Below, in pieces: positions 30,459 through 64,000 of a stretch of DNA of 64,000 bases. A program made the position numbers and the translations under genes. Under the pieces are notes generated by a model that saw only the letters and a list, made by a program, of their open reading frames with translations, did not search any database and was not told where the DNA came from. The stretch comes from Escherichia coli (GTDB lineage Bacteria > Pseudomonadota > Gammaproteobacteria > Enterobacterales > Enterobacteriaceae), in the NCBI RefSeq assembly GCF_003018115.1, contig NZ_CP027457.1; one strand, given 5' to 3'. The first letter of the stretch is position 1, and each line of letters opens with the position of its first letter.

Positions 30459-31049
30459 ATGTCTCAAATTTTTGCTTACTGTCGGATATCAACGCTGGAT
30501 CAGACCACCGAAAATCAACGCCGGGAAATCGAAAGTGCAGGTTTTAAAATCAAACCTCAGCAAATAATCGAAGAACACATTAGCGGCTCAGCAGCAACCA
30601 GTGAGCGTCCTGGTTTTAACCGGTTGCTTGCTCGCCTGAAATGTGGTGATCAATTGATTGTGACAAAACTGGATCGCCTTGGTTGTAATGCAATGGATAT
30701 CAGGAAAACAGTGGAACAACTGACCGAAACAGGTATCAGAGTGCATTGCTTAGCATTGGGGGGCATTGACCTGACCAGTCCAACAGGAAAAATGATGATG
30801 CAAGTAATTTCAGCAGTCGCTGAATTTGAACGAGACCTTTTACTTGAACGCACTCATTCCGGGATAGTAAGAGCCCGCGGCGCAGGGAAACGTTTTGGTC
30901 GACCACCTGTGTTAAATGAAGAACAGAAACAGGCGGTATTCGAACGAATTAAGTCAGGTGTAAGTATAAGTGCCATTGCCCGGGAATTCAAAACCTCGCG
31001 GCAAACCATTTTAAGAGCCAAAGCAAAACTTCAGACACCTGACATATAA
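30459..31049 (+). CDS. pinQ: Serine-recombinase DNA invertase (Pin/Gin/Hin family)
   Basis: 196-aa ORF with N-terminal resolvase catalytic domain (YCRISTLDQ, active-site Ser) and C-terminal HTH. Confidence 0.9.
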
Positions 31050-31146: not shown

Positions 31147-31722
31147 CTACGGCAGTGCTGGCCATTCAATATCCTGTGCAGTTGACGTATCAACACGGTT
31201 CAGCAATACCCGATACTTTTTCCATGCTTCCAGCAACGAGATTTCTTCCTCCGTTGCAATTTCCAGATCTGCAGCATCCTGAAGCGGCGCAATATGCTCA
31301 CTGGCTACCTGCATCAGGTTGTTTTTTGTTTCTTCCGCCTCCCGGATCCGGAACAGTTTTTCTGCTTCCGTATCCTTCACCCAGGCTGTGCCGTTCCACT
31401 TCTGAAACTCCCCTTCCGGCGATAACCAGGTAACATTTTCCGGTAACGGACCGAGTTCAGAAATAAATAACGCGTCGCCGGAAGCCACGTCATAAACCGT
31501 TTTACCCCGATGATCTTCAACGAGATGCCACGATGACTCATCACTGTTGAAAACAGCCACGAAGCCAGCCGGAATATCTGGCGGTGCAATATCGGTACTG
31601 TTTGCTGGCAGACCTGTATGAGGCGGAATATATGCATCACCTTCACCAATAAATTCATTAGTTCCGGCCAGCAGATTATAAATTTTTATGGTCCGTGGTT
31701 GTTCACTCATTCTGAATGCCAT
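31147..31722 (-). CDS. tfaQ: Tail fibre assembly protein
   Basis: 191-aa [37 protein letters not shown]...; start overlaps stf stop. Confidence 0.9.
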
Positions 31723-34700
31723 TATGCAAGCCTCACAATATAGTTAAATGCGATGTTTTTGACGGTGTTTTCCGCGTTACCAGCAGCGTTAACGGTGATG
31801 GTGTGTCCATGTGAACCAATCGCAACGGAGTGCGTATGAGCACCAATACCGACAGTATGTGCATGTGCGCCTGCGCTTGCAGCAGTGCCGGACAGCGAGT
31901 GGGTATGAGCACCATCTGATGATGTCTTCCCTGCATTACGAGTCTGGCCACTACCGCTTGTTGTGCTCATAATCCCCGCGCTTAGATTTGAAATCGCGGT
32001 ATAACCATTAGGGAAAATGCTCGTGTTCGTGCCACCAAATGCACCGGAACTCTTGTGTTGGTGCGCACCGGCACTATTTGCGGTCCCGCTAATACTATGG
32101 GTATGCGCCCCGGTGTTATTCGTGGATTTGGTTCCGTAATCAAACGACGATGTGGTTTTCGTCCCCAAATCCGTACTGGATGCGCTGGCGCTGTGGGTGT
32201 GCGATTTAATGCCGTCCTGTTCCTGAGATAATACGGCCCGACCACTGGCGGGCTTGCCCTTAATCGTCCAGCCACGCATATCAGGGATCACGCCTGACGG
32301 ATAAGCAACTGCAAGTTTCGGGTATGCAGATTTGTCAAAAGTCTGCCCCTGCATCAGGGCATAACCAGACGGAACGGTATCTGATGGCCACGGGATTGGT
32401 GCACCGACTGGATAAAACTCTGCAGGAGGATGAGCCGAGGTGTAAAGCTGCGCCCACGGCGACCAGTTTGCGTCGGTCGTATCCCGTCGTGAACGAATAA
32501 ATGCCGGAGCATGAGCACCGCTTGTACCACTCCAGCCGATGAGTAACTCACCTTCGCCAACGGCTGTCATCCCTTTCAGGTGAATGATATTTCCATACGC
32601 TGTTGGATATCCGTTGTTATACACCTCGTATAACTCAAGACCTGCTGCCCCCTGCGTATTGTCTGTCAGCGCGGTTACCCGACCTTTTGAAGCCAGATTA
32701 ACTGATGATACTGCTGTTCCACCTGACGGTAACGCCCCGATCTCTGATGCCGTTGGCTTATTTCTGGAGTTATAGTCCCTTCGCCAGCCAGGTGAATAAT
32801 CTGTTCCGTGATTAATATAGGTAAACTGGGCGTTAGTTGTTCCACCACCAGTGGAGGTGGTCGGTGTGGTAATGCGGATCGTCATCGCTGACTTTATCCC
32901 CATTACTTCAATGACAGCTCCGGCGAGATGAATATTACCGCAGTCAGTATCAGTAATGATTTTATTATTGCCATAAGACCAGGAACCCTTGCACATCCAG
33001 TATGGATGGTTAAATGCTCCCTGAGAATCCAGCCACTCGATAAACTGTGCAGTCGTCCAGTTTCCTGTTGTTGTGCTTACTGACCCACCGAAGGCACGGC
33101 AGGCACCAATATTTTTCGTAAAGGTATCTTTGCCAGGGATATCCGCACCGTTCTGATCTTTCTGCAGACGTTTCTCAGCATTGTCATTGGCTGCTTTTAC
33201 TGCCTTTGGTGTCGCGGCAAGCGTTTCAGACGTGCTGTTGGTCGCGCTGCTTAGCTGGATTATCCCTTTCTGTGCTGTCGTTGCATCCTGTGCGGTGTAT
33301 TTCCCGTTAGCCAGGTCATACGCGGCCTTAACGGCTTTTGGTGTTGCCGCCAGTGACTCGGAAGTGCTGTTAGTCGCACTACTGAGCTGTACTATCCCCT
33401 TTTTCGTCGTGCTCGCATCCTCAAGCGCCACGGCGGATGCAATATCCTCTGCCCGTTTTGCTGCTGTCTCGGCGCGCGTTGCTGCGGATTCTGCCGTACT
33501 TTTGCTCTGAGCTGCCGCCGTCGCACTGCCAGCAGCCTCTGTCGCCTTCGTGGATGCCGTCGTGGCGCTGCTCTTCGCTGCTGACGCTTGTCTGGTCGCC
33601 TCATCTTTTGAAGCAGACGCCGATGATGCCGATGACGCCGCCGAACTGGCTGACGATGCGGCAGCCGTTTTTGAGGATTCTGCGCTGGTTTCCGACGCTT
33701 TCGCGTTCGTTTCGGATGTCTTCGCTGCGGAAGCAGACCTCGCTGCTGCGCTGGCCTGTTCAGTGGCTTCGCCAGCCTTCGTTGTGGCTGTTGAAGCAGA
33801 CGATGCGGCGCTTTCTGCCGATTTTCCGGCGGCGGTGGCACTGGCTGAGGCCTGCCCGGCACTTGTTGACGCTGCACTGGCAGACGACGCAGCCGCTGTT
33901 TTTGAGCCTGCCGCAGCCGAGGCGCTCTGTCCCGCTGCCGTTTCAGAAGACCTGGCGTTCGTCTCTGACGTTTTTGCCGCCTTCGCGGAATTTCCTGCCG
34001 CTGTTGCCGAGGAAGCTGCGCTACTGGCGCTCGAGGATGCGTTCGTTTCTGATGATTTTGCCGCCTCTTTTGAAGCCGACGCATCCCGGGCTGAGGTGGC
34101 AGCTTCTGACGCTTTCGTGGTCGCGGTGGATGCAGAAGTGGCTGCTGATTGTTGTGACGCTGCAGCATTCGTTTCTGACGTTTTCGCGGCACTGGCACTG
34201 GTAGCTGCCGCGCTTTTTGAGGACTCTGCAGCGGCAGCACTTTTTGATGCTTCAGTGGCCTTTGTTGATGCCGTTCCTGCGCTGGAAGACGCTGACTGAG
34301 CCGACGAAGCGGCCTGTCCGGCTGACGTGCTGGCTGCGCGTGCTGAGCCTGCAGCATCAGTCGCATGGGTTGCCGCCTCACGGGCAGATGTGCCGGCATC
34401 GCCGGCTGACTTCTTCGCGGCTGCCGTGTTCTGTGCCACCGCGGACGCGTTACGCGCCACCTCTTCCACCATCAGTTCAAAACGGCGCAGAGCCTCCGGA
34501 CGGGCATCATCCTCCGTCATGGCACCGAGAAAATCATTCAGCGTACCGGGTCGGGAATCTTCATACACGGTGATGGTCCCGGCATGTGACGGCGGGAATC
34601 CTTCCACCAACAGAATAACGCTGTACTGACCGTACTCAACGTCCATGCTGTAACGCCCGGCTTCATCCGGATTTTCTGAGGCCAGCGTGTTCACCACCAC

Positions 34701-34796
34701 CGCGGTGCTGTTACGTTTTGCTTTCAGCTGGATTGTGCAGTTCTGTACCGGTTTTCCTGTGCCGTCTTTCAGTACACCTGAAATCTTTACTGCCAT
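31722..34796 (-). CDS. stf: Side tail fibre protein, lambda Stf-like, full length (about 1024 aa)
   Basis: N-terminus [26 protein letters not shown]... and C-terminus ...[24 protein letters not shown] match my recollection of lambda Stf; track start is a GTG two codons upstream of the ATG. Long Ala/Ser/Thr-rich central repeats; His-x-His motifs near C-terminus. Confidence 0.9.
33180..34330. repeat. Low-complexity Ala/Ser/Thr-rich coding repeats inside stf (GC-rich, open in several frames)
   Basis: Reiterated ...SAA(S/T)SA.../KTSETNA units and duplicated [15 protein letters not shown](S/T)[11 protein letters not shown] block; generates spurious ORFs on both strands. Confidence 0.8.
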
Positions 34797-34860: not shown

Positions 34861-35460
34861 TCAGAACTTATAACCGACACCCACGATGAAACCGTCAGTG
34901 CGCCAGTCGCCACTGCCGGAGCCTTCATAAGCAATATCAATGGCCACGGATTCGGTCGGGTTAAACTGCACGCCAGCTCCCCACGCCAGAGACGTGTTGC
35001 TGTGGCGACCGTCATCACTTCCGGTCAGCACGTCGTGCGTTTTCCCCTTGTTGTCAGTTACGCGGAGATAATCCCCGGAGAAAGTCGACACACGGCTGTA
35101 AGCCATACCCGCCATCGCATACGCGCTGAACCATTCATTCACGCGCACAGACGGCCCCACCATCACGCTGAACCAGCGGTTACGCACGGAATCTTCATGC
35201 CAGCGGGTATCGCTGTAACGGGTAAGCTGGCGATTCTTGTCTCCTGCATAGCTGAATGACGTCACCAGCCCCAGTGTGTCCGTAAACTCATAACGGTATT
35301 TCACGTTAATCCCGTTAAGATCATCGCTGCCGGGAACGTTCGTCGAGGCATGAAGATACCCCGCGCTCAGCGTGGACTGATGTTCAGATGCCCATGCAGG
35401 CGCACCGGATACGGCCAGACAAATGGCTGCGGACAAAATGGCGGCATAAAGTTTACGCAT
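34861..35460 (-). CDS. lom: Lom/Ail-family outer-membrane beta-barrel protein
   Basis: 199-aa ORF with signal peptide and C-terminal ...[15 protein letters not shown] as in lambda Lom. Confidence 0.9.
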
Positions 35461-35529: not shown

Positions 35530-38500
35530 TCAACGAATACTGATGCCGGAAGCGGCTTTTTTGGTCACAATCACCGTACAGTCGGTGATATTGCCTGCCC
35601 CCTGATTGCCTTTCTGGAAAATCTTAAACTCCAGAGTGACGCTACCACCACCACTAGGCATATCAATAACTGCACTGTAACTACCGGGAATGGCCCCTTT
35701 AGTTTCTCTGGATGCGATTAATACGCCGTTTTTGCGAACTTCAAAACCATAACCCGTGTATCGCGTGCCTCCTGGGTTATTTCCGCTCCCCGGATCGTCA
35801 TACGCTATACCGTTAAAAATAATGGGCGGAATAATAATCTGGCGGTCAAAGTTATGATCATCGCTGATGGTGACTGTAACCGTACCGTTTGGTGTTTCCG
35901 TGTTACCCCACGTACCGACTTTTTTCGGGAAGGCTTTTGATACAGCTTTAACGAAATCCCCTCTGACCTGGGTCGCCTCCAGCATGCCCTTAATCGTACA
36001 GTTCTGGTTAATCGTGACATTGTTGAGCGTTCCTGAGTTCGCATTCACACTACCACTGATATCCGCATTTTTAGCGGTCAGCTTTCCGTCTGATGTCAGG
36101 GAAAATACCGGAGGACTGCCACCGCTGGTAATGGTGGGGGCCGTCAGGCGTTTCAGGAACACTTCATTCATGAATATCTGATCGCCCTGACCAACAAACA
36201 TCGGCTTTGTGTTGCCATTCGCAGGATTAATCATCGCAATCCTGTCTGCTGCCAGCAGCACCTGACTCTGCATGCCGTCAGGGGTGTTCTCAATACCGGC
36301 ACCGATACCCGCAATATAAAGGCGTCCGTCCTGCATCTGCTGCAGCTTCACTGCCCACATGCTGTTCAGGTTATTATTTGTATCAACCTGAACCTTCTGT
36401 ATCTGCTGGATTGCCGCACTCTGGTCTTCCAGTTTCTTATTGACGGTCTGTGTTATTTCATTGCTGACATCCGTTATGGACGTCCTGATTTCAGTCAGGT
36501 CAGGCGCAAGCTGACCGTTATCAATCTGCGTCCACAGCTCCTGAGCCAGATGGGTTTTCCCTATCTCGCCTTTGAAAAAATCCAGATAGCCTGATGCATC
36601 ATCACTCGGCTGACCGACAGCCTCCACGAATGCCGATTTGCCAACGGTGTTCACACTGCGAACGTAAAAATAATAATCATGGCCCGGTTTGATATTGATA
36701 CTGGCGGCTATCCAGTACAGTGCCGTACCAAGATAACGCGCGCTGGTTTCAACCTGCCTGATATCCGCAATCCGTTTTTCCGAGAACCAGAACTCAAACT
36801 GTACCGTCGGGTCATAAACCGCAAGATGCGGCGTGGCGGTTATCTGAAAATAGCCCGGCGTCAGCTCAATCCGCGACGGCGCTGCCGGTGCGGCAATCCG
36901 GAACGATACCGACGCCGGATCGCCCTGCTGCCCCCACGCATTTACTGCCCGGACTGTCAGCCTGTAGTTCCCCAGAGCCAGTTGTGTGAAGCGGTAAGTG
37001 GTTTCCGTCGTCCGGGCCGTGCTGACCAGCCGCTCACGGCCGTCATCCGCTGCCACGGTCAGGCGAAGCAGGAAGCTCACGCCCTTCACCACCTTCGGCG
37101 TGTCCCAGCGCGCCAGCACCTGGTATTCCCCGCTGTCTGCGGTGACTTCTGCGGTCAGGTGCTGCACCGCTGGCGGCGTGACACCATTTACCGTGCCGCT
37201 CTGGTCGCCGTCAAAGTGCGCCCCGTTATCCACGATGGCCTCTTTTTCCGGTACATGCTGCACGGCGGTGATGGCATACGTGCCGTCGTCGTTCTCACGG
37301 ATACTCACGCAGCGGAACAGGCGCTGGCGCAACGTCGACAGCTTCAGCCCCCATACGCTGTATTCAGCAACGCCGTCAGGAACACGGCTCACTTTCACCT
37401 TCACGCCGTCGGTGACGGACTGAACCTCCACGCTGACCGGACTCCCCTGCCCGTCAACCAGGCTTATCAGCGTGGTGCCGGAAGATGGCAGCGTGATTTC
37501 ACGGTCGAGCGTCAGCGTCCGGGTCTGGCTGTTTACCGCCAGCACGCGCCCGCCGGTGCGGATACCGGCATAGTCATCATCGCAGATTTCAATGACATCG
37601 CCCGGTACATGGCGAAGCCCTTCGGCACCCACGCTGAAGTCCACGGTCTGCGTTTCCAGCAGTTCTGTTTTAATCAGCCACAGCCCGGCGCGGTGTGCCT
37701 GCCCCCGGCTGGTACAGCCAAAAGCATCCATCTTCGTGACGTTACGACCGTAACGGGCAATGGCCTGCGTGTCCTCCACAAGCTCTGTCGCCGTCTCCCA
37801 GCCGTTATTCGGGTCAATCCAGTTCACCTCAACGGCATTATGGCGGTCCTTCAGGGCGCTGAAGCTGTAGCGGAACGGCGCACCATCATCCGGCATCACC
37901 ACATTACTGCGGTTATAGGTCCACACCTTATCCGACGGTCGGTCCTGCACGAACGTCAGCGTCTGCCCGTTCCATACCGGCATACAGCGCATCGCAGAGC
38001 AGAAATCACTGAGCACATCCCACGCCTTGCGCTGTGTGGTCAGGTACGCATTACAGGTGATGCGCGGCTCTGTGCCGCCAAAACCGTCCGGCACCGACTG
38101 ATCGCAATGCTGGCCGATGACATACAGCGCCCATTTGTCCACATCCGCCGCACCAAGACGTTTCCCCATGCCGTAGCGCGGATGGGTCAGCATATCCCAC
38201 AGACACCAGGCCATGTTGTTGCTGTATGCTGGCTTAAACGTTCCGTCCCAGATACCGCTGTATTGCCGCGTCTGCGGGTTATAGTTCGACGGCACCTGCA
38301 GAATGCGCCCGCGCAGATGATAATTACGGCTCACCTGCTGGCTGCCGAACTGCTCCGAATCCACCTGCACGCCGACCAGTGCCGTGTTCGGGTAGCACTG
38401 TTTCACATCGATGATTTCGGTGTATGACGACCAGAGCGTTTTGTTCTGCAGCTGGTCTGTGGTGCTGTCCGGCGTCATCCTGCGCATCCGTATATTGAAC

Positions 38501-39027
38501 GGGCGCGGCGGCAGGTTACCCACCACCACCGAGGCCAGATACTGCGAGGTGGTTTTGCCCTTAATGGTGATGTCTTTTTCCGTCACCCAGCCACCATTAC
38601 GCTGGATCTGAACCAGCAGGCGGACTTCCGACGGATTCCGGTCCCCCTTTGAGGTGGTTTCCACCAGTGCCTGCACGCCGAAGGTAAAGCGCAGACGGTC
38701 GATGTTTGCAGACGTAATGGTGCGGGTGATCGGCGTGTCATATTTCACTTCCGTACCCAGCACCGTCTCGGAGCCGGAGGATTCAAACCCCTCCGGCGGT
38801 GTCTGCTCCTGCTCACCGGCACGGAACACCACCGTGACACCGGAGATGTTGGTATTCCCCTCAGTGTCCAGCACCGGCGTACTGTTCAGCAGCACGCTTT
38901 TTAATCCATCCACCGGACCTTCAACCGGCCCTTCGCTGATGGCATCGATCACACTCAGCAGCTGCGTGGACTTCAGGTTGTCCTTCGCTTCGCGCGGGGT
39001 ATGCCCCTTACTGCTGCCTTTACCCAT
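35530..39027 (-). CDS. J: Tail tip host-specificity protein J (1165 aa), lambda J-like with divergent C-terminal region
   Basis: N-terminal about 790 aa match my recollection of lambda J ([34 protein letters not shown]...); central fibre and last roughly 250 aa differ. Confidence 0.9.
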
Positions 39028-53823: not shown

Positions 53824-54343
53824 TCAGCAACCCCGGTATCAGTTCATCCAGCGCGGCTGCTTTGTTCATGGCTTTGATGATATCCCGTTTCAGGAAATCA
53901 ACATGTCGGTTTTCCAGTTCCGGAAAACGCCGCTGCACCGACAGGGGGATCCCGTCGAGAATACTGGCAATTTCACCTGCGATCCGCGACAGCACGAAAG
54001 TACAGAATGCGGTTTCCACCACTTCAGCGGAGTCTCTGGCATTTTTCAGCTCCTGTGCGTCGGCCTGCGCACGCGTAAGTCGATGGCGTTCGTACTCAAT
54101 AGTCCCTGGCTGGAGATCTGTCTCGCTGGCCTGCCGCAGTTCTTCAACTTCCCGGCGCAGCTTTTCGTTCTCAATTTCAGCATCCCTTTCGGCATACCAT
54201 CTTATAACGGCGGCAGAGTCATAAAGCACCTCATTACCCTTGCCACCGCCTCGCAGAACGGGCATTCCCTGTTCCTGCCAGTTCTGAATGGTACGGATAC
54301 TCGCACCGAAAATGTCAGCCAGCTGCTTTTTGTTGACTTCCAT
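53798..54343 (-). CDS. nu1: Terminase small subunit Nu1
   Basis: 181-aa ORF MEVNKKQLADIFGASIRTIQNWQEQGMPVLRGGGKG... with winged HTH. Confidence 0.95.
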
Positions 54344-54359
54344 TGTTCATTCCACGGCC

Positions 54360-54560
54360 AAAAACAGAGAAAGGAAACGACAGAGGCCCAAAAGCTCGTT
54401 TTCAGCACCTGTCGTTTCCTTTCTTTTCAGGGGGTATTTTAAATAAAAACATTAAGTTACGACGAAGAAGAACGGAAATGCCTTAAACCGGAAAATTTTC
54501 ATAAATAGCGAAAACCCGCGAGGTCGCCGCCCCGTAACCTGTCGGATCGCCGGAAAGGAC
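54360..54560 (-). other. cos: cos packaging site (cosB, cosN, cosQ); cosN 12-nt cohesive-end sequence at 54521-54532
   Basis: Plus strand reads ...CGCGAGGTCGCCGCCCCGTAACCTGTCGGATC...; reverse complement GGGCGGCGACCT is the lambda cohesive end, flanked by lambda-like left- and right-end sequence and CGTTTCC-type Nu1 sites. Confidence 0.85.
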
Positions 54561-54731
54561 CCGCAAAATGATAATAATTATCATCTGCATGTCACAACGT
54601 GCATCTACGCCATCAAACCACGTCAAATAATCAATTATGACGCAGGTATCATATTAATTGATCTGCATCAACTTAACGTAAAAACAACTTCAGACAATAC
54701 AAATCAGCGACACTGAATACGGGGCAACCTC

Positions 54732-54965
54732 ATGTCAACGAAGAACAGAACCCGCAGAACAACAACCCGCAACATCCGCTTTCCTAACCAAATGATTGAA
54801 CAAATTAACATCGCTCTTGAGCAAAAAGGGTCCGGGAATTTCTCAGCCTGGGTCATTGAAGCCTGCCGCCGGAGACTGTGCTCAGAAAAAAGAGTTTCTT
54901 CTGAAGCAAACAAAGAAAAGAGTGACATTACTGAATTGCTCAGAAAACAGGTCAGACCAGATTGA
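54732..54965 (+). CDS. ynfO: Small basic prophage protein YnfO (YlcI-like)
   Basis: 77-aa ORF MSTKNRTRRTTTRNIRFPNQMIEQINIALEQKG...; position between cos and ydfO. Confidence 0.7.
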   Translation: MSTKNRTRRTTTRNIRFPNQMIEQINIALEQKGSGNFSAWVIEACRRRLCSEKRVSSEANKEKSDITELLRKQVRPD

Positions 54966-55022
54966 AGCAATTTAGATAATCGTGCAGACTACGCCCCCTC
55001 ATATCACATGGAAGGTTTATCT

Positions 55023-55433
55023 ATGGATCAGGTAGTCATTTTTAAACAAATATTTGATAAAGTTCGAAACGATTTAAACTATCAATGGTTTTATTCTGAG
55101 CTAAAACGTCACAATGTCTCACATTACATTTACTATTTAGCCACAGAGAATGTTCATATTGTATTAAAAAATGATAATACAGTGTTATTAAAGGGCCTAA
55201 AAAACATTGTGTCTGTCAAATTTTCAAAGGATAGGCATCTTATAGAAACGACCTCTAATAAGCTGAAATCCAGAGAGATCACATTTCAGGAATACAGAAG
55301 AAACCTTGCTAAAGCAGGAGTTTTTCGGTGGGTTACAAATATCCACGAACAAAAAAGATATTACTATACCTTTGATAATTCATTACTATTTACTGAAAGC
55401 ATCCAGAAAACTACACAGATCTTACCACGCTAA
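55023..55433 (+). CDS. ydfO: DUF1398-family prophage protein YdfO (YbcV-like)
   Basis: 136 aa from ATG at 55023 (GAAGG RBS); an upstream in-frame ATG at 55008 has a poor RBS. Confidence 0.7.
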
Positions 55434-55584
55434 ACCATAACGTCCGGCTTCTCTCACTCCTGAGCCGGACTGCATTGGTTTAATAAAAACCATCAACAAT
55501 TGTGATTTAGATATTCGGAACCATTCAAATATAACAAAACCCCGTAAAAACGAGGTTTATGGATAAATTTTATTATTGAATACA

Positions 55585-55758
55585 TCAGATTAAATTAATC
55601 TTGACATCATAGCTTTCAAGACCCGTCATTTTTTCCCGTGCGGTAAACTGAATACTGGTAACTTCTTTCCCGGTCTTTTTCTTAAGTTCAATAATTTTTT
55701 TTGTTATATATTCAGAAATATCTGCTTCTGCTTTTGTTTTTAAGTTTTCAATATTCAT
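55585..55758 (-). CDS. gnsB: GnsB (GnsA/GnsB family), 57 aa
   Basis: Minus-strand translation MNIENLKTKAEADISEYITKKIIELKKKTGKEVTSIQFTAREKMTGLESYDVKINLI; below ORF-track cutoff. Confidence 0.8.
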   Translation of the reverse strand: MNIENLKTKAEADISEYITKKIIELKKKTGKEVTSIQFTAREKMTGLESYDVKINLI

Positions 55759-55929
55759 CATTTCCTCTTTTAGTCTGTTATGACTTTCCAGTTACACAGT
55801 AAGTCGATTATATGGTGCAAACGTGTAAAAGATAAGATGAAACATCGCAATAATCAACATACGATAGTCTAAATTTTACACAAACAGACAAAGAGAATTT
55901 TCCTGAATTATCAATGCAATAGCATCAAA

Positions 55930-56160
55930 TCAACTCAAGAGCCTTATTGCTGCTTCCAGAATTTCTTCTGAAGTAACATGTCGATCCGCGGCTACATAAA
56001 TGACTTTATGATCTCCGGTCAGAGATGGAAACCCTGCGGCCATTACAGTAAGGTGTGTTTTTTCGCCATTTGGATATTCACGCATGATGGTGTTAACTCC
56101 AGTCATCGCTGGCACTACCACTGCTGGTTCAGAGTTAAAAAAAACTATGATTTTTTTCAT
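55930..56160 (-). CDS. Small prophage protein (possibly ynfN-like); start uncertain
   Basis: ORF MKKIIVFFNSEPAVVVPAMTGVNTIMREYPNGEKTHLTVMAAGFPSLTGDHKVIYVAADRHVTSEEILEAAIRLLS; a 51-aa version would start at MREYP (56085). Confidence 0.45.
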   Translation of the reverse strand: MKKIIVFFNSEPAVVVPAMTGVNTIMREYPNGEKTHLTVMAAGFPSLTGDHKVIYVAADRHVTSEEILEAAIRLLS

Positions 56161-56431
56161 GATGTTACCGTAGTATGTGAGTATCCATCGAATAGACACC
56201 AAGCAAAAAAGCTCCCGAAGGAGCCTTCATTTTCACTTTTTTAAATCCAACGACAGACGGCTGGCATTTAAGTATTGTGAAATATTATCAAATGTAATCA
56301 TCATTGATTTACAAAAGATACATTTTGCCCCGAAAGGATTCATGTCAGAAACATCAAAAGATGATGTTCTATACTGGGAACCATGACAACACGGGCATCT
56401 AAAGTGAATATGGTTTGTAATATTGTCTACC

Positions 56432-56644
56432 TCAAAGCGCCACTACATGAACAGCGGCAGGACCTTTAGGTCCGTTCTCAATACCAAATTCAACTTCCTG
56501 ATTCTCAGTTAATGTTTTGAAATCGTTGCTCTGAATTGCTGAGAAATGGACAAACACATCTTTGCTGCCATCTTTCGGCGTGATGAAACCAAAACCTTTT
56601 TCAGGGTTAAACCATTTCACTAAACCAGTCATTTTGTTAGACAT
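56432..56644 (-). CDS. cspI: Cold-shock protein (CspA family)
   Basis: 70-aa [41 protein letters not shown]... with RNP1/RNP2 motifs. Confidence 0.85.
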
Positions 56645-57006
56645 AATTATTACCTTTTGAAGAAATTAGCCCTTGGGCAGAATGGTCCGAAAAAAAATAT
56701 CAGAGAGAAAAACCAACAAGGAAATCTCAAGAGGTACAAATAATAAAATTATAACAATGACTGCTTCAGATAAATTTGTAACAAACCAGAACACCATTAA
56801 CGCATGATTAACCACCCATAGCAAGGATTACTTTTGTAAAGAAAAACACAGCAATGAAAGAATAGCTTTATTTATTAATAAAACGTGTCATTCTGATTAA
56901 GACCTTTTATCTTACCCTTAAGATTTCAGGAATTTTGGCTCATGGAAGAGTCCTTTTTATTTAAATTTTACATTCCGCGATGTAAATGTTCCGATTTAAT
57001 ATTACC

Positions 57007-58030
<1,024 letters not shown>

Positions 58031-58034
<4 letters not shown>

Positions 58035-58342
58035 AGATATTTATGATGAGGACGCTCGTGCTTATTGGCAGGATTTTCAATCTTAAAGGAGTACTGATGC
58101 TGCAGATAAGACTCAACTTTTTCTGACAATTTTTCTGCTACTTCCAGGAAGACTTGCCGGACGCTCCTTCTGGCTGCTGCCTCATAAAACTCCAGCGCAG
58201 CTCCTTCAACACGGTCCATGGCGACATCCAGGTCAAAAATTTCACCGTCAAAGCGTTCTTTGTCCTGTAAGGCTACAGTTACCGTAACTTTATTCTCAAA
58301 ATTACGGACTCCTTTCACAACCAGTTCATAGTCTTGAGTCAT
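58031..58342 (-). CDS. ydfR: DUF1327 protein YdfR, between holin and endolysin
   Basis: 103-aa ORF MTQDYELVVKGVRNFENKVTVTVALQDKERFDGEIFDLDV... Confidence 0.8.
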
Positions 58343-58346
58343 TGGA

Positions 58347-58562
58347 TTACTCTCCTCTCGCAGCCTTACGCCTGTCTTCTTTAATCTTGAAATAAAGATT
58401 TGTCAGATACGTCAGCAGGCCAAAAACCAGGCTACCCAGCACACCGATTGCAGCCCACTGTGACGGAGTTACTTTATCGAGTAACTGCAATGCCCAGAAA
58501 CCAGCATTACCCGCCGATGTGCCATAGGCAACACCTGTTGTTAACTTATCCATTGATTTCAT
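58347..58562 (-). CDS. essQ: Class II holin (phage 21 S-like pinholin) with dual-start motif
   Basis: [26 protein letters not shown]... 71 aa; two TM domains; Met-Lys-Ser-Met dual start. Confidence 0.85.
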
Positions 58563-58781
58563 ATCCTCACCCCGATGTACACGGATGGTGCAATATGTTT
58601 GAAAAGATCGGAGTCTACGGGGTAGTTTTGACAGCACACGTTGTTCTCAACGGCGCTAAAAAAACATACACATTAAAAATGTGGGTAATTATTTTGAAAG
58701 AAAGTCATATATAAAATAATAATACGAGAAATGTTTTCATATTTAGTGTACTGTATACGGCCATTTATACAGGAAAAGCCT

Positions 58782-58952
58782 ATGTCAGAACGTAAAAACT
58801 CAAAATCACGCCGTAATTATCTCGTTAAATGTTCCTGCCCAAACTGCACCCAAGAGTCAGAACACAGTTTTTCAAGAGTACAAAAAGGTGCCCTTTTGAT
58901 CTGCCCTCATTGCAACAAAGTATTCCAGACAAATCTTAAAGCTGTAGCCTGA
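58782..58952 (+). CDS. ynfU: 56-aa zinc-ribbon small protein (YnfU-like)
   Basis: MSERKNSKSRRNYLVKCSCPNCTQESEHSFSRVQKGALLICPHCNKVFQTNLKAVA; CxCPxC...CPxC four-Cys motif. Confidence 0.6.
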   Translation: MSERKNSKSRRNYLVKCSCPNCTQESEHSFSRVQKGALLICPHCNKVFQTNLKAVA

Positions 58953-59315
58953 TTGATTTTATTAGTAACAAGTATTTTTTATATTTTAATAATATATTTA
59001 AAGCAGATAATAAAAAACCCGCCTGAGCGGGTTTGAGATTGTGGTGCTTTTTGTGGGAGTCATCCACTTACGCACTTTGTTTTGCCATGCCAGCAGTTAG
59101 CTTCTGCTGTAAAACTATTCATGCAGCAAACCTGCACTTCACCACAATGGTTAGCATACTTTTCCTGATTAAGATTTTGCCAAATATGCTAGCCATTGTT
59201 TCATGTATTGGACCTCCTTACTTTTTATTAAAGAGATCCAATATTCACTACTCTGTCCGTATCTCTACTCAGGCATCAGCCTTCTTCGTTATCGTATACA
59301 GACGAGCGATGAATT

Positions 59316-59531
59316 TTAATCAGTAATGATGACATTTGCTGCTGCAGGACCTTTAGCACCACTCTCTATAGAGAAGGTAACCTTTTGACCTTCAAATAAG
59401 GTTCGATAATTATCATTCTGAATCGCAGAAAAATGCACAAACACATCTTTACTACCATCAACAGGAGAAATAAAGCCGAAACCTTTATCAGCGTTAAACC
59501 ATTTTACTAAACCAGTCATTTTATTTGACAT
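59316..59531 (-). CDS. cspB: Cold-shock protein (CspA family)
   Basis: 71-aa [41 protein letters not shown]... Confidence 0.85.
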
Positions 59532-59831
59532 TCTACATTCCTTAACTTGAGCCTTTCGGCATAAATGGTTTGCATAACAGAAACGACTTCGTACTTAATT
59601 GGAGAGACTCAAAGAAGGAATAAGTGAATAACACCTGAAATGAGAACTGCTTTAGTAAACTACTTCGTATATCGTCTGTTCTTCAAACCGACGCAATCAT
59701 TAACGCATAGTTGAACATATGAAGCAATGTTTATTTTAGACATCCAGCCATCTTCAACCCCATCAAAAAACTATAGCTTTCTTCAGGAACGTGTGTATAG
59801 TGCGCCAAGTTATCAGTATTAAGGAATTTTT

Positions 59832-60044
59832 TTGTCCCGTAAAATGACAGGAATTGTCAAAACCTTTGACGGCAAAAGCGGCAAGGGTCTTATCACCCCA
59901 TCCGATGGTCGTATCGATGTCCAGCTTCATGTTTCAGCGCTCAATCTCCGCGATGCAGAAGAAATTACCACCGGATTACGCGTGGAATTTTGCCGGATAA
60001 ATGGTCTGCGTGGCCCTTCAGCTGCCAATGTTTACCTTTCATGA
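59832..60044 (+). CDS. cspF: Cold-shock-like protein (CspA family, divergent)
   Basis: 70-aa [40 protein letters not shown]...[19 protein letters not shown]. Confidence 0.85.
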
Positions 60045-60098
60045 GCTATATTAAAGCTTTAATTTCAGGCCCCATCGGATCACACATGGAGAGTTTTT

Positions 60099-60188
60099 AT
60101 GAATAACCCCGTCTGTCTTGATGACTGGTTGATTGGCTTTAAAAGCTTATGCTGTACTTTGGCCGTAATAGCTCTGCTAATAATATAA
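60099..60188 (+). CDS. Candidate 29-aa small membrane protein downstream of cspF
   Basis: ATG with GGAGAG RBS 5 nt upstream; [29 protein letters not shown] has a hydrophobic C-terminal helix. No homology evidence. Confidence 0.35.
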
Positions 60189-60465
60189 TAAGCAGACTCA
60201 TTGTGTTTAGGGACATTGTACTGGAAGAAAACATTTTAAACATCAGGCAAATAACCAAGTCACCAGCTAAATAATAAGTTAACAGACATGAGTCCCGGGA
60301 TGAGATTCAACATTACCATTGCCCCATTTAAAGCACAAAACCCGCTCATCAGCGGGTTTTCTACTTTTTCTTAACGTCGGGTATACAAAGCCCATCGTTG
60401 AAAAAATTTTATCCATATTTTTTGAAAAATGCAAACATCATGTCGCCATCTTCAGCAAAAATCAT

Positions 60466-61218
60466 TTATCTCGTCACCTTCCTCAATTGCGCTTCCGCGT
60501 ATGCTTCTTCCTGCCAGCACTTTGTTACCAGTTTACCAATGACGTCCGCATACCCCTTATACCACTGATAATCGGTCAGGTCTGGTACCAGCTTCTGGAC
60601 ATGACGTCGTGCCAGCGTGGTCGGTAAACGACTAAACCGGTTTCCATTACAACGCCCACAAATCTTATATACCGGTACGCCATGAAACCGGGTTCTTTTT
60701 TCATCCAGAACAATCCCTTTACCCTTACACCCTCTGCACGCTGTGCTGGCTTCGCCCTTACCATGGCAATGCTGACATAGTTCCTTCACCCATTCTTCCT
60801 TGATTACAGATTCCCCGCGTCTGTAGTGTTTCACCACTTCGCGCAATACATTATAAAATCCCGTACCTGAACAATGCTCACAGCGAGCCTTACTTGCCGC
60901 AGACCTGGAGTAATCAGCAAAGGCAAAACTCACGAGGTAAGGAATAATCTGTAACCGGATTTCTTCACTCAATTTGTTCAATGTCGGGTTATCCAGTGCC
61001 ATCGCGTAATTTAGCAGGCCTTCAATCGCAAACTGAGGGTCCTGAACACCAACTTTTGCCAGAAATAAGGCCAACCCAAGTGGTGCTTTCGACTGCACCA
61101 TCCCCTGCGCTGCCATTACATCCGTAATTGTTAAACAACCGGTGCCTGTCGCTGGAGCGTCATCGCTCAATTTTGGAGATTTTGGGGAGTAATATTTTGG
61201 TAAGGCTTCAAGGTTCAT
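60466..61218 (-). CDS. quuQ: Late-gene antiterminator Q-like protein
   Basis: MNLEALPKYYSPKSPKLSDD... 250 aa from internal ATG; Cys-rich zinc-binding motifs (CEHCSGTG, CQHCHGKG, CRGCKGKG, CGRCNGN). Confidence 0.85.
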   Translation of the reverse strand: MNLEALPKYYSPKSPKLSDDAPATGTGCLTITDVMAAQGMVQSKAPLGLALFLAKVGVQDPQFAIEGLLNYAMALDNPTLNKLSEEIRLQIIPYLVSFAFADYSRSAASKARCEHCSGTGFYNVLREVVKHYRRGESVIKEEWVKELCQHCHGKGEASTACRGCKGKGIVLDEKRTRFHGVPVYKICGRCNGNRFSRLPTTLARRHVQKLVPDLTDYQWYKGYADVIGKLVTKCWQEEAYAEAQLRKVTR

Positions 61219-61231
61219 GCTCGTTCTCCAC

Positions 61232-62320
61232 TTACGCCAGTACGCCAATTGTCAGCGCGCGATCGATAAAACGAAATATCAGCTCCAGTTGGGAGCCATA
61301 CTTATCTTCAAATGCCACTGTATCCGTATGCAGCTCGTTGTGATGCTTTCTGCACAAAGGCAACACAAAGAGATCATGTGCTTTTGTTCCCATTCCGCCC
61401 TGCCCGTGACCAATCAGATGATGCGGATCGTCGGCTGGCATACCGCAGCAAGCACACGGCTGTGTCTTAACCCAACGTGTGTATTTCTCCTTAACCCAGC
61501 GGCGACGTTTAGGCAGCTTCATGAAAGATTCCGGAGACTCTGGATCAACGGTGATGCTTACCACCGTCTTTTCCTGTGGTGATTTTTGTTGCTGGTGGGC
61601 GTAAGGCAACGGTGCAAGATTTTTTGTGCGTTGTTTCAATATGCTGGTGGCGGTCTGCTCTCCCGGTACGATGTCGCTTTCGCGGTACACCGAGCAGATT
61701 TTTTCCGCTGGTAATCCCAGCGAACGACGCGATACAGCCTCAGGTAGTGCATCCACCACCTGATTGCAGACCGCCCACCAGGATAATTCAGCCAAAGATA
61801 ATTCCCGCTCCTGCGTACCGCTTATTGCGTGACGGATGACGTCAATCACCCATGCTGTCAGATTTTGTTGAGCAAGCAGCTCCAGTGATTCCGATGTCTG
61901 GTCACGCAGTTGGTTGTCGCAGTGCCAGCACAACACCATTGCGCCGGTACCATAACGGTGAATGACTGTTTCAGTGTGATGGTAATCGCCATTAGGCCAC
62001 TGGCAGGATGTAACATGACGTAATAGCCAGTCGGACAATGCGCCAACGCCGCCAGCAGCACGAATCACCCGTTCGTTACTAAAAAACGGCAGCAATGTTT
62101 TGTCTTCCGCCAGCGGCTGGCGAACGGCAGGAACGACTCCGGATGGCAGATTACGCATGCTTTTTGGTTCCGGTTCCACCAGCACTCGAGGATTATGAAA
62201 TATCTGTATGGATTCACGGCCCGGCTTAAGGACCACCAGCCCAAGCTCAGGCACCAGAACAGGTCTAAGTAATACCCGCACGTTACCTCCAGATCCGTTG
62301 CTGGAAAGTGCGGGACGCAC
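61232..62320 (-). CDS. ydfU: DUF968-family prophage protein YdfU; start uncertain (track start may be extended)
   Basis: 362-aa ORF with C-terminal Cys/His cluster (CACCGMPADDPHHLIGHGQGG...CRKHHNELH). Confidence 0.8.
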   Translation of the reverse strand: MRPALSSNGSGGNVRVLLRPVLVPELGLVVLKPGRESIQIFHNPRVLVEPEPKSMRNLPSGVVPAVRQPLAEDKTLLPFFSNERVIRAAGGVGALSDWLLRHVTSCQWPNGDYHHTETVIHRYGTGAMVLCWHCDNQLRDQTSESLELLAQQNLTAWVIDVIRHAISGTQERELSLAELSWWAVCNQVVDALPEAVSRRSLGLPAEKICSVYRESDIVPGEQTATSILKQRTKNLAPLPYAHQQQKSPQEKTVVSITVDPESPESFMKLPKRRRWVKEKYTRWVKTQPCACCGMPADDPHHLIGHGQGGMGTKAHDLFVLPLCRKHHNELHTDTVAFEDKYGSQLELIFRFIDRALTIGVLA

Positions 62321-62561
62321 GTGGTGGGCGTTCGGAATAAGGCAGCCTGACAGAGATTATCCAGTGCCGATAGTCGAGACTGAGAGCTTTCTTAACCTCG
62401 AACCCGCGCCTGCGGTAAGAATGAATCAGCCATTCGGCCTGTTCTGCAGTGCATGGAGGGTGCTGGAACCATTCAGACTTGAATGCGTGAGAATACCGCC
62501 CGTGCGTGCAGGCAAGAACGGGCGAATTATCAGAATTGTAATATTTTGCGTTGCGTGCCAT
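62283..62561 (-). CDS. Hypothetical 92-aa protein immediately upstream of ydfU
   Basis: ORF MARNAKYYNSDNSPVLACTHGRYSHAFKSEWFQHPPCTAEQAEWLIHSYRRRGFEVKK...; non-random composition; ends where the shorter ydfU start would lie. Confidence 0.4.
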   Translation of the reverse strand: MARNAKYYNSDNSPVLACTHGRYSHAFKSEWFQHPPCTAEQAEWLIHSYRRRGFEVKKALSLDYRHWIISVRLPYSERPPRASRTFQQRIWR

Positions 62562-62627
62562 CGGTTTTCTCCGGTGGCACGGTGTTACTCAGCGGGAGTT
62601 CAGCCCCGCGCAAGATTGTAGATGAGT

Positions 62628-62879
62628 TTATTCTCCTGAAAAAGCAGAAAAGCCAGCTTTTATTCCGATCTCTTTCAATGCCTGTAATGAAGTGACAAAC
62701 TCACCTTCGCGCAAGATAAATCCGTCCGTGACCCGAGCATCCACAAAATTAATTAACGCAGCCCCATTCTTTCGCAAACACATAATGCGGTAATGACTAA
62801 CAAGATTTCCATTTTCAACGCACACAGCATAGAGGCCATCTTCACAAAAAATTTTACGCAGTTCTTCGATGTTCATCAT
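62628..62879 (-). CDS. rem: Qin prophage protein Rem
   Basis: 83-aa ORF MMNIEELRKIFCEDGLYAVCVENGNLVSHYRIMCLRKNG... Confidence 0.8.
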   Translation of the reverse strand: MMNIEELRKIFCEDGLYAVCVENGNLVSHYRIMCLRKNGAALINFVDARVTDGFILREGEFVTSLQALKEIGIKAGFSAFSGE

Positions 62880-62997
62880 CAGAATCCTTCCGGATAATTA
62901 GCTCTCCCCTTTAAGGGACCATCCCTCTTATCCCTGCGCGCTACTTAAGTATTTTTGATTCTATTCCGGCACCGTCCAGAACTTCAAACGCGTTGAA

Positions 62998-63027
62998 AAT
63001 AAAAACAAAAACCCGCCGAAGCGGGTT
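62998..63027 (-). terminator. Rho-independent terminator downstream of hokD (end of relB-relE-hokD operon)
   Basis: Hairpin AACCCGC-TTCG-GCGGGTT followed by T-run on the minus strand. Confidence 0.55.
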
Positions 63028-63095
63028 AAGTGCGGGTGCGTTGAGGATGCCTGCCACATCAGAGGTGGCGAGGGATTTCTCCCCCGCCGGGTCTC

Positions 63096-63251
63096 TTACT
63101 CCTCAGGTTCGTAAGCTGTGAAGACAGCGACCTCCGTCTGGCCGGTTCGGATTCGTACCTCGCAGAGGTCTTTCCTCGTTACCAGTGCCGTCACTATGAC
63201 GGTTAAACAGATGACGATCAGGGCGATTAACATCGCCTTTTGCTGCTTCAT
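63096..63251 (-). CDS. hokD: Hok-family membrane toxin HokD (RelF), 51 aa
   Basis: Minus-strand translation MKQQKAMLIALIVICLTVIVTALVTRKDLCEVRIRTGQTEVAVFTAYEPEE; below ORF-track cutoff. Confidence 0.85.
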   Translation of the reverse strand: MKQQKAMLIALIVICLTVIVTALVTRKDLCEVRIRTGQTEVAVFTAYEPEE

Positions 63252-63322
63252 AGCCTGCTTCTCCTGTCAACGCAAAGCAGAAGTGTCACCTTCGGTGCGA
63301 AACAGAGATGTCATGCTTTGGT

Positions 63323-63610
63323 TCAGAGAATGCGTTTGACCGCCTCGCTATATACTTCCGAGCGTTCTCTTTTCCCAACAGAAATCACGAAAACGACAAC
63401 TTTCTCGTCTATAACCTGGTATACAAGGCGATAGCCTGAAGACCGGAGCTTAATCTTGTAACAATCAGGCATACCACGGAGCTTGTTTGCTTCAATCCGG
63501 GGTGACTCAAGTACTTCAACCAGCTTCTTTTTCAACTGTTCACGTACCGTCGAGCCCAGCTTTCGCCATTCCTTTAGTGCCCGCTCGTCAAAATCCAGAA
63601 AATACGCCAT
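63323..63610 (-). CDS. relE: RelE mRNA interferase toxin
   Basis: 95-aa ORF MAYFLDFDERALKEWRKLGSTVREQLKKKL... Confidence 0.95.
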   Translation of the reverse strand: MAYFLDFDERALKEWRKLGSTVREQLKKKLVEVLESPRIEANKLRGMPDCYKIKLRSSGYRLVYQVIDEKVVVFVISVGKRERSEVYSEAVKRIL

Positions 63611-63849: not shown

Positions 63850-63860
63850 GTCTTACACCT

Positions 63861-63887
63861 CTTGTAATTACAAATGTCATTACAAGT
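63861..63887 (-). promoter_or_regulatory. relO: relBE operator: palindromic repeats overlapping the relB promoter
   Basis: CTTGTAATTACAAATGTCATTACAAG directly upstream of relB start; 12-bp palindrome TTGTAATTACAA plus repeated ATTACAA. Confidence 0.7.
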
Positions 63888-64000
63888 ATCGCACTACAAC
63901 ATGCTTAGGGCAAGTCACGAAGGAAGTCAGAAAGTAGTCGTAAGAACGGTGATCACTGTCCGCTTTGTGCCAGGAGCAGCCATTGCTAAGTCCATCCTGT

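Follow-up and report, generated by a model that had tools for sequence, protein, structure and literature searches.

The minus-strand gene at positions 31722–34796 is very probably stf and encodes the side tail fibre of a lambdoid prophage, complete and of the Qin type, in Escherichia coli. Its sequence points to a modular fibre, presumably a trimer. Positions refer to the window, the whole 64,000-nt stretch of DNA that was analysed. The gene is of a well-known, catalogued kind and is not an unstable repeat locus. The Qin prophage of K-12 is defective.

Locus and prophage context

The reading frame runs from an ATG at 34796 to a stop codon at 31722–31724, without frameshift or internal stop. 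A GTG two codons upstream of the ATG is an alternative start that would lengthen the product to 1026 aa. RefSeq WP_000279080.1 is identical to the stf product. Many independent complete E. coli genomes carry a 100% identical stf, so the gene is not an assembly artefact; together with the intact frame, this removes the two objections, artefactual repeats or a frameshift in the tract, that the preliminary description had set against its own reading. IS3 interrupts the identical gene in some genomes. The locus comprises the following genes.

30459–31049, plus strand: pinQ, serine invertase gene, convergent with tfa (Pfam Resolvase and HTH_7; annotation)
31147–31722, minus strand: tfa (tfaQ), tail fibre assembly chaperone gene, its start overlapping the stf stop (Pfam PF02413, E = 3.6e-43; phrog_105; annotated tfaQ)
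31722–34796, minus strand: stf, complete side tail fibre coding sequence, 1024 aa (reading frame; annotation of an identical copy; 100% identical copies in complete genomes)
34861–35460, minus strand: lom, Ail/Lom outer-membrane protein gene, upstream of stf (Pfam PF06316, E = 1.4e-119)
35530–39027, minus strand: J, central tail fibre/host specificity protein gene, 1165 aa (reading frame; annotated gpJ in a related locus)

Reading frames, Pfam matches and annotation give the order J-lom-stf-tfa-pinQ, adjoining ydfK/ynfT/ydfJ; the opposite side carries Qin cargo genes (cspI, cspB, cspF, ydfT, ydfU, rem, hokD and relBE). By the same evidence and by comparison with identical and related loci, stf occupies the late-operon place of a lambdoid side fibre gene, after J and lom and before tfa.

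An ompC-like porin gene lies between quuD and essD in a related prophage whose stf is identical (strain 10). No comparable plus-strand porin reading frame was seen in the corresponding part of the window (54000–64000), and the annotated Qin-type cargo lists no porin.

Domain organization of Stf

Stf can be divided into an N-terminal docking region, a long rod, two fibre repeats, a two-part central region and a tip.

34395–34796, minus strand, aa 1–134: N-terminal tail-docking (collar) domain, followed by a linker and the start of the rod (Pfam PF08400, E = 2.8e-71; PDB 9e7m)
33411–34460, minus strand, aa 113–462: 50 uninterrupted heptads A-x-x-S-A-x-x, taken as the proximal α-helical coiled-coil rod (heptad table, autocorrelation, AF2, lambda identity)
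33282–33413, minus strand, aa 462–505: first 44-aa phage tail fibre repeat (Pfam PF03406)
33150–33281, minus strand, aa 506–549: second 44-aa fibre repeat (PF03406), absent as a second copy in lambda and K-12 StfR, which have one each
32712–33182, minus strand, aa 539–695: central module, homologue of the S/S' tail fibre chain of phage Mu (PDB 8ju3, phrog_6722, phrog_26292)
32418–32711, minus strand, aa 696–793: further fibre module without a solved relative (matches to phrog_22609 and phrog_37852)
31725–32417, minus strand, aa 794–1024: T4 gp37-type receptor-binding tip with collar, needle and head (PDB 2xgf; Pfam Collar)

PF08400 is matched at full length (1–134), as in the docking domain of lambdoid side fibres. 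PDB 9e7m, a 'Tail fiber protein', matches aa 1–94 (E = 6e-51) and is nearly identical over the aligned 94 residues. Residues 1–94 would form the domain that attaches the fibre to the tail. The collar of Ur-lambda is built from twelve copies of the N-terminal domain and bears four trimeric fibres.

PF03406, a repeat of ~42 aa, is found in two stretches (E = 6.2e-37; 125.4 bits against a cut-off of 22). The duplicated 15-residue block noticed in the preliminary description starts at aa 466 and aa 510 and is part of this pair, the two repeats lying 44 aa apart. The copies share 28 of 44 residues and only 77 of 132 nucleotides, with a longest in-register exact run of 8 nt. The two conserved repeats (aa 462–549) probably mark the place at which phages exchange distal modules.

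The central part of the fibre, aa 539–793, includes the Mu S'-like domain. PDB 8ju3 matches Stf with an overall E-value of 3.5e-84 (4e-68 for the stretch aa 539–695), and the tail fibre families phrog_6722 and phrog_26292 match the same module. A PDB sequence search with aa 690–799 returned no match at E ≤ 10, and aa 696–793 has no characterised relative.

The Ala/Ser/Thr tract is a heptad rod

Alanine, serine and threonine account for 72–80% of residues across aa 151–450, and the GC content of the tract, 61%, is above that of the gene (55%) and of the window (49.6%). Ala occupies position 1 in 47 of the 48 heptads tallied (aa 120–455), Ser position 4 in 37 and Ala position 5 in 34. Autocorrelation of the protein gives z = 7.6–10.2 at all multiples of 7 through lag 119, while the other listed lags have z ≤ 1.8. 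The repeats are far beyond chance in the protein and barely detectable in the DNA: what had appeared to be low-complexity repeats is a structural periodicity kept in the protein, with diverged DNA copies.

AF2 predicts a single continuous helix over aa 98–473 (mean pLDDT 74.7, pTM 0.27) for a single chain run without an alignment, which is silent on the oligomeric state. Residues 102–303 are 84% identical to the proximal coiled coil of lambda, a segment that has been modelled as trimeric (PMC12617516). The in-register heptads, the predicted helix and the identity to lambda match the long proximal α-helical coiled coil of lambdoid side fibres. Residues 113–462 would form a rod of ~52 nm, which, with exactly 15 more heptads, would be ~15–16 nm longer than that of lambda. 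Substitutions in the tract relative to lambda fall on the third stf codon position in 48 cases and on the other two in 18 and 19, as expected if purifying selection acts on the stf frame. Lambda Stf chimeras fused at R393, just past the fibre repeat, are functional, and the N-terminal part and rod therefore constitute a portable scaffold (PMC11338833).

Comparison with lambda Stf

Lambda Stf (KT232076) has 774 aa, so the preliminary description was right about both the identity of the fibre and its size, with a difference of 250 aa. Its attribution of this excess to the repeats and the duplicated block is correct for 149 of the 250 residues: the tract contributes 105 aa, exactly 15 heptads, and the second Phage_fiber_2 repeat 44 aa. 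Another 116 aa come from the larger central module, including the Mu S'-like domain, and the tip has 15 aa fewer than that of lambda. The additional heptads can be placed in a single block.

33573–33887, minus strand, aa 304–408: 15 heptads exactly, a block present in K-12 StfR, mEp460 and PhiR42_1 and missing from lambda Stf (alignment, segment counts)

Recent duplication was rejected as the source of both the 15 heptads and the second fibre repeat: in-register DNA identity does not exceed 58% in the tract, and the fibre repeats share only the 77 of 132 nucleotides given above. The difference may reflect either an insertion or a deletion. A spacing of 51 heptads is the common E. coli form, found also in K-12 StfR, and lambda is a shorter variant. 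The term 'expanded' that had been applied to the gene is misleading.

The fibre of Ur-lambda has been described by cryo-EM/ET and an AlphaFold3 model; its virion carries four Stf trimers and adsorbs faster (PMC12617516). The present Stf resembles it in the N-terminal collar domain (93 of 101 residues identical), in the A-x-x-S-A-x-x rod (169 of 202 and 43 of 53 in the shared parts), in the Phage_fiber_2 repeat, the gp37-like HxH tip and the downstream Tfa chaperone gene, and in its position after J and lom. The two differ where lambda has its hinge and distal coiled coil and the present Stf a different, larger central module. Lambda also has eight HxH motifs compared with seven here, and the head loop differs.

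The length of the tract is stable

The preliminary description proposed that slippage or recombination changes the repeat number and hence the length of the fibre. As a contingency-type repeat, the tract would often shift in copy number through slipped-strand mispairing or unequal recombination, and fibres would vary within and between populations. Tract length does differ among relatives. The distance between anchor motifs is 357, 252, 245, 154, 140 or 133 aa among representatives of 50%-identity clusters, and close relatives show two different 28-aa deletions, one of them flanked by the best direct DNA repeat of the tract (27 of 42 nt, 84-nt spacing). Rare 3-aa indels sit at both of the tiny arrays detected by TRF.

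33616–33640, minus strand, aa ~386–394 (AASSASSAS): 9-bp micro-array, 2.8 copies (TRF), with a rare natural 3-aa deletion (variant P0002, lacking aa 387–389)
33836–33882, minus strand, aa ~305–321: 21-bp micro-array, 2.2 copies (TRF), with a rare natural 3-aa insertion at aa 321 (variant P0032)

However, these two are the only tandem arrays that TRF found in the gene, which has no near-identical head-to-tail DNA repeats. Exact DNA repeats in the gene reach 12 nt at most, and the best in-register 35-aa windows reach at most 69% identity in protein and 58% in DNA, so there is no DNA substrate for ongoing slippage or recombination. The spacing of the anchors is unchanged in 106 of 120 close database relatives, and the variants are mostly known from single partial records. 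Of 5426 complete E. coli genomes, 3577 contain at least 80% of the tract. In a spread sample of these genomes, 45 of 47 full-coverage hits (89–100% identity, K-12 StfR included) have an identical span of 1113 nt. Tandem-repeat analysis and the comparison of repeat number among genomes, two of the checks that had been suggested, both speak against frequent change, and we regard a contingency-type tract as very unlikely. Ongoing slippage is largely unsupported and remains only as slow evolutionary variation; the lengths of relatives differ mostly by whole heptads, which indicates variation of this kind.

Indels that preserve the heptad phase persist in the tract, at 28 aa (two cases) and 105 aa, and the anchors lie 19 to 51 heptads apart. 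We can speculate, though the odds are against it, that rod length is a discrete, heptad-counted trait tuned by evolution, with a reach perhaps matched to the thickness of the host O-antigen or capsule, and that the depletion of T|A at codon boundaries described below possibly reflects selection at the RNA or DNA level. If so, heptad-counted rods would give fibres of different reach, for example ~36 nm compared with 52 nm, and the conserved fibre repeats would allow any rod length to be combined with any tip.

Open reading frames in the other frames of the tract

As noted from the letters alone, the GC-rich tract is open in several frames on both strands, with long reading frames of 335 aa on the minus strand and of 255 and 249 aa on the plus strand. 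That they encode overlapping or antisense proteins seems to us highly improbable. One antisense frame is indeed anomalous: it contains 1 stop codon where 9.8 ± 2.3 are expected (P about 0.0005) when synonymous codons are shuffled only between sites with the same amino acid and heptad position. This frame is open because T|A across codon boundaries is depleted, with an observed/expected ratio of 0.31 compared with 0.93–0.94 elsewhere. The other two long frames, however, are no more open than the shuffled controls (353 codons compared with a mean of 355; 262 compared with 296). The depletion is seen only in lambda, StfR and the window, which are mutually close relatives, and is absent in Gifsy-2 and Fels-1. 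Moreover, the differences from lambda lie mostly on third positions of stf codons, which are the middle bases of the antisense codons, and the antisense protein is therefore not conserved. Genes in alternative frames were rejected on these grounds, the shuffles explaining two of the three long frames and the third encoding a protein that is not conserved. The openness of the alternative frames follows largely from amino-acid composition.

The T|A depletion at codon boundaries in the E. coli tracts is strong; it keeps one antisense frame open.

The receptor-binding tip

The tip of T4 gp37 (PDB 2XGF, chain residues 28–242) aligns with aa 794–1024 in a phmmer search (E = 1.3e-83), and Pfam Collar (PF07484) is found at aa 798–845. 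Two regions of the tip can be distinguished.

31803–32201, minus strand, aa 866–998: span with seven HxH motifs, the predicted iron sites of the needle (motif list; 2xgf alignment)
31908–32090, minus strand, aa 903–963: hypervariable stretch of the head domain, the likely receptor-contact region (drop in identity to mEp460 and PhiR42_1)

The motifs are HTHS at 866, 898, 964 and 987, HQHK at 912, HAHT at 978 and HGHT at 996, and all seven are in register with HxH motifs of T4 gp37. The crystal structure of gp37 contains seven Fe ions coordinated by HxH pairs, according to a passage of PMC11705849 that cites Bartual 2010. The likeness to metal-binding fibre tips that had been remarked for HTHS, HAHT and HGHT thus extends to the entire set, as predicted metal sites. 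Each motif would supply two histidines per chain and six per trimer, with seven irons along the needle.

Within aa 903–963, only 21 of 56 residues are identical to mEp460 and PhiR42_1, compared with 92–100% in every other segment. The exact tip (last 166 aa) is present in the phages mEp332 (100%) and ev099 (99.4%), which match only 45–46% of the full protein. The hypervariable head would contact the receptor, for which an OmpC-type porin and/or LPS is the most probable candidate. A dedicated chaperone gene adjoins the tip, tfa (PF02413, E = 3.6e-43) lying directly downstream, and Tfa is its folding chaperone.

PinQ and DNA inversion

The presence of a Pin-family serine invertase gene (pinQ, Resolvase and HTH_7) directly downstream raises the idea that stf is the target of PinQ-mediated inversion, which would switch the distal part of the fibre as in the Mu G or P1 C segments. 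The similarity of the central module to Mu S' fits this idea. By translation of the gix sequence, the Mu crossover site lies within the sequence coding IQNLGLQE, and the 8ju3 alignment shows this peptide at the corresponding position. However, a search of the entire window for gix, allowing up to 3 mismatches, found no match, and the core AAACCNNGGTTT gives chance-level matches only, all far from stf. These searches thus found no gix/cix-like crossover site of the kind used in the Mu G, P1 C and e14 P systems. The gap between tfa and pinQ is only ~100 bp and holds no alternative inverted set of fibre ends, and the inverted repeats in stf are short and imperfect (15–20 nt, 80–94% complementary). 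The missing gix and core sites, together with the absence of a second fibre end in the tfa-pinQ spacer, speak against an invertible segment, and inversion of stf by PinQ is most improbable.

Relatives of the modular fibre

The modules of this lambdoid side fibre recur in different combinations. StfR of the Rac prophage of E. coli K-12 (1120 aa) is almost identical over aa 1–493, including the whole 50-heptad tract at equal length, and shares a gp37-type tip with seven HxH motifs and the tfa-pin arrangement. It differs in having one fibre repeat instead of two, an unrelated and longer central region and a different head loop.

The relationship to T4 gp37 spans aa 794–1024 end to end, with a common collar, the seven HxH motifs in register and an identical C-terminal strand, whereas the loop of the head domain is longer here and unrelated in sequence. 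The present tip is carried by the coiled-coil rod type of siphovirus side fibre, that of T4 by the β-structured gp34-37 fibre. The chaperone is of the lambda Tfa type, while T4 uses gp38 and gp57A.

In phage Mu, the S/S' chain (PDB 8ju3, 5yvq) is matched by the second fibre repeat (E = 1.4e-15) and by aa 539–695 (4e-68). Unlike in Mu, there is no invertible segment or gix site here, and the Mu-like part is internal and not the receptor-binding end.

The Stf proteins of mEp460_ev081 and PhiR42_1, aligned in full, have the same architecture and 1023 aa, with overall identities of 95% and 94%. PhiR26_1 and PhiR68_2 give matches of 3069 nt, the same length as those of mEp460_ev081 and PhiR42_1. 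All four are plaque-forming or sequenced phages. A marked difference from mEp460_ev081 and PhiR42_1 is confined to the head stretch aa 903–963, the tip here being of the mEp332/ev099 type.

Implications

The supposedly unstable low-complexity tract is a stable rod of structural heptads, part of a common, catalogued prophage fibre, and the HxH motifs would make up an iron needle of the T4 type. Stf scaffolds have been engineered to retarget lambda particles (PMC11338833). The series of rods differing by whole heptads, together with an exchangeable head loop (aa 903–963), hints at design rules for the length and specificity of such fibres, which may be of modest practical relevance.

Stf is an intact fibre protein of a Qin-type prophage

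The side tail fibre gene stf lies downstream of J and lom. Next comes a tail fibre assembly gene, beyond which pinQ is found in convergent orientation:

30459-31049 (+), pinQ, serine invertase gene
31147-31722, tail fibre assembly gene
31722-34796 (-), stf, side tail fibre gene
34861-35460, lom
35530-39027, J

stf is a single intact open reading frame of 1024 codons from an ATG; with the GTG located two codons upstream as start, the protein would have 1026 residues. E. coli strain 10 carries an identical copy, annotated as WP_000279080.1 ("prophage tail fiber N-terminal domain-containing protein"); there the genes tfaQ, pinQ, ydfK, ynfT and ydfJ come next, which marks the Qin position. The window holds a full-length Qin-type prophage: on the other side of stf (35000-64000), the lambda-like head and tail genes are complete and the Qin cargo (cspI, cspB, cspF, gnsB, ydfT, ydfU, rem, hokD and relBE) is present. 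In K-12 Qin, the structural genes are reduced to remnants.

Many independent complete genomes carry stf copies that are 100% identical, and in 635 genomes at least 80% of it is present. An assembly artefact or a frameshift, the two possibilities named as refuting in the preliminary description, can therefore be dismissed, and the observation itself is confirmed. An IS3-family element splits an otherwise 100% identical stf in nine complete genomes among the matches listed. stf belongs to a well-known gene type; proteins identical to its product are already catalogued, and the family is now structurally described.

pinQ encodes a Pin/Gin-family serine invertase and adjoins the fibre genes, about 100 bp beyond tfa. 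An invertible fibre system was rejected, since neither a gix-like crossover site nor an alternative fibre end was found in the window, and pinQ looks like an orphan invertase.

All parts of stf match tail fibre families in PHROGs, and the downstream gene matches tail fibre assembly. The motif RSRRD..W..YTS, which ends the module at residues 696-793, recurs before the StfR tip and at a domain end in the Mu S' chain.

Domain assignments in Stf (residues; assignment; source)
1-134; PF08400; Pfam, E 2.8e-71
1-94; N-terminal domain; PDB 9e7m "Tail fiber protein", PDB sequence search, E 6e-51
Two 44-residue fibre repeats; PF03406; Pfam
490-565 and 539-695; phage Mu fibre S/S'; PDB 8ju3, E 4e-68 for the stretch; Mu S also matched by PDB 5yvq
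696-793 (window 32418-32711 (-)); fibre module without a solved relative; PHROG matches
798-845; Collar domain; Pfam
794-1024; T4 gp37 receptor-binding tip; PDB 2xgf, E 1.3e-83

The Ala/Ser/Thr tract is the proximal coiled-coil rod

Ala, Ser and Thr make up 72-80% of residues 151-450. The residue autocorrelation (residues 120-455) peaks only at multiples of 7: all of these lags as far as 119 give z = 7.6-10.2, and none of the other lags listed exceeds z = 1.8. The Fourier peaks of the tract are at 3.5 and 7.0 residues. Residues 113-462 make up 50 heptads in unbroken phase. Of the 48 heptads in residues 120-455, 47 have Ala at position 1 (the other has Val), 37 have Ser at position 4 and 34 have Ala at position 5. 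AlphaFold2 predicts a single chain of residues 92-475 as one continuous helix (98-473, mean pLDDT 74.7).

The Ur-lambda gpStf is arranged as collar domain (1-91), linker, proximal coiled coil (102-393), hinge, distal coiled coil and gp37-like receptor-binding domain (2025, PMC12617516). Lambda Stf is identical to our protein at 169/202 positions in residues 102-303 and at 43/53 in residues 409-461. The heptad periodicity, the predicted helix and the lambda match therefore identify the tract as the proximal coiled-coil rod. By analogy with the four trimeric gpStf fibres of the Ur-lambda virion (PMC12617516), the rod would be trimeric.

The rod also looks like a mobile module. Two giant database proteins, P0225 (2820 residues) and P0253 (3903 residues), contain many separate A-x-x-S-A-type heptad segments of about 10-28 heptads each. 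In five others (P0142, P0163, P0169, P0194 and P0266) the heptad run of the rod begins at residue 152 instead of 113, and the match begins at about query residue 150.

The fibre is 250 residues longer than lambda Stf

We used the conserved motifs MVEEV, a 15-residue block and GAPIPWPSD as length landmarks.

Landmark spacing in residues (segment; Stf; lambda Stf; difference)
MVEEV to first fibre repeat; 357; 252; +105, exactly 15 heptads (residues 304-408)
First fibre repeat to tip start; 332; 172; +160, of which 44 is the second fibre repeat and 116 a larger central module
Tip start to C-terminus; 226; 241; -15

The lambda tip differs by an additional 10-residue repeat and an eighth HxH. Reiterated low-complexity units and a duplicated block had been proposed to account for the extra length; this segment comparison indicates that they explain 149 of the 250 extra residues, but not the remainder. 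Compared with lambda, Stf is indeed expanded, yet the long rod is the common E. coli form and not specific to this locus. K-12 StfR (1120 residues), from the Rac prophage, shares residues 1-493 almost exactly and has the same type of tip, but it contains one fibre repeat, then a different central region, and another head loop.

The tract hardly repeats at the DNA level

Tandem Repeats Finder reports only two arrays in stf, 9 bp x 2.8 (33616-33640) and 21 bp x 2.2 (33836-33882). Direct-repeat families have lengths of 15-45 nt and for the most part 60-90% identity, and no exact repeat anywhere in stf is longer than 12 nt. Compared in register, even the best 35-residue windows reach no more than 69% identity in protein and 58% in DNA. 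The two fibre repeats are identical at 28/44 residues, yet at only 77/132 nucleotides.

Across the population, however, the tract keeps a stable length. At least 80% of the tract is present in 3577 of 5426 complete E. coli genomes. In an evenly spread genome sample, the tract span is exactly equal in 45 of 47 full-coverage matches (89-100% identity, K-12 StfR included), the two exceptions being -6 and +13 nt. The anchor spacing is unchanged in 106/120 close database proteins. The preliminary description had suggested that repeat number could change by slippage or recombination; frequent slippage is therefore not supported.

In the course of evolution the length does vary, largely in exact heptads, which is a mildly new point. 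Among 21 representatives of 50%-identity clusters having both anchors, spacings of 357, 252, 245, 154, 140 and 133 residues, all multiples of 7, cover 17 proteins; the others have 104 (three proteins) or 149 residues (one). In a wider representative set, the longest in-phase run of a protein comprises anything between a few and about 56 heptads. Close relatives contain rare length variants, mostly single, partial records. Two different deletions remove 28 residues (four heptads), and the tract's best direct repeat, with 27/42 identical nucleotides at 84-nt spacing, flanks one of the two. A 3-residue deletion and a 3-residue insertion map to the two micro-arrays, and a 44-residue deletion takes out one fibre repeat. 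In our reading, recombination or slippage produced these variants on rare occasions, and the outcomes were filtered by the requirement to maintain the coiled-coil register; slippage is supported only as rare evolutionary events.

One antisense frame is unusually open

The long open reading frames observed in several frames on both strands of the tract are real. Two frames are about as open as synonymous-codon shuffles would make them: the +1 sense frame (353 codons, shuffle mean 355) and one antisense frame (262 codons, shuffle mean 296). The other antisense frame (window 33550-34299 (+)) contains 1 stop where shuffles confined to codons that share amino acid and heptad position predict 9.8 ± 2.3 (P about 0.0005). 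This is because T-A steps across codon boundaries are depleted in the heptad tract (observed/expected 0.31, versus 0.93-0.94 in J and the other parts of stf). Lambda and K-12 StfR share the depletion, but are close relatives; Gifsy-2 and Fels-1 lack it. A second gene in this frame was rejected. Of the differences from lambda, 48 fall on third codon positions of stf, compared with 18 and 19 on the other two; these third positions are the middle codon bases of the antisense frame, so the antisense protein is not conserved. The codon-boundary bias is odd, and a mildly new point.

The tip resembles the T4 gp37 receptor-binding domain

Seven HxH motifs are found, at residues 866, 898, 912, 964, 978, 987 and 996, and in the 2xgf alignment each lies opposite an HxH of T4 gp37. 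The gp37 tip contains seven iron ions coordinated by paired HxH histidines (Bartual et al. 2010, as summarised in PMC11705849). The earlier proposal of a metal-binding fibre tip is thus well supported by homology, and the Stf tip would be expected to bind metal.

The head domain lies between the third and fourth HxH. In phages mEp460_ev081 and PhiR42_1, residues 903-963 are identical to stf at only 21/56 positions, compared with 92-100% everywhere else. The last 166 residues are found in phages mEp332 (100% identity) and ev099 (99.4%), whose matches cover only 45-46% of the full protein. This is the usual exchange of receptor-binding ends as modules.

A related strain 10 prophage with identical stf (locus L008) carries an ompC-like porin gene (23591-24673 of L008) between the antiterminator gene quuD and the lysis genes, which is noteworthy because gp37-type fibre tips bind OmpC. 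No comparable plus-strand open reading frame was seen in window 54000-64000, and the annotated Qin-type cargo there includes no porin. Both T4 gp37 and lambda Stf bind OmpC (PMC12617516; PMC9659904). The receptor of this fibre is likely an OmpC-type porin and/or LPS.
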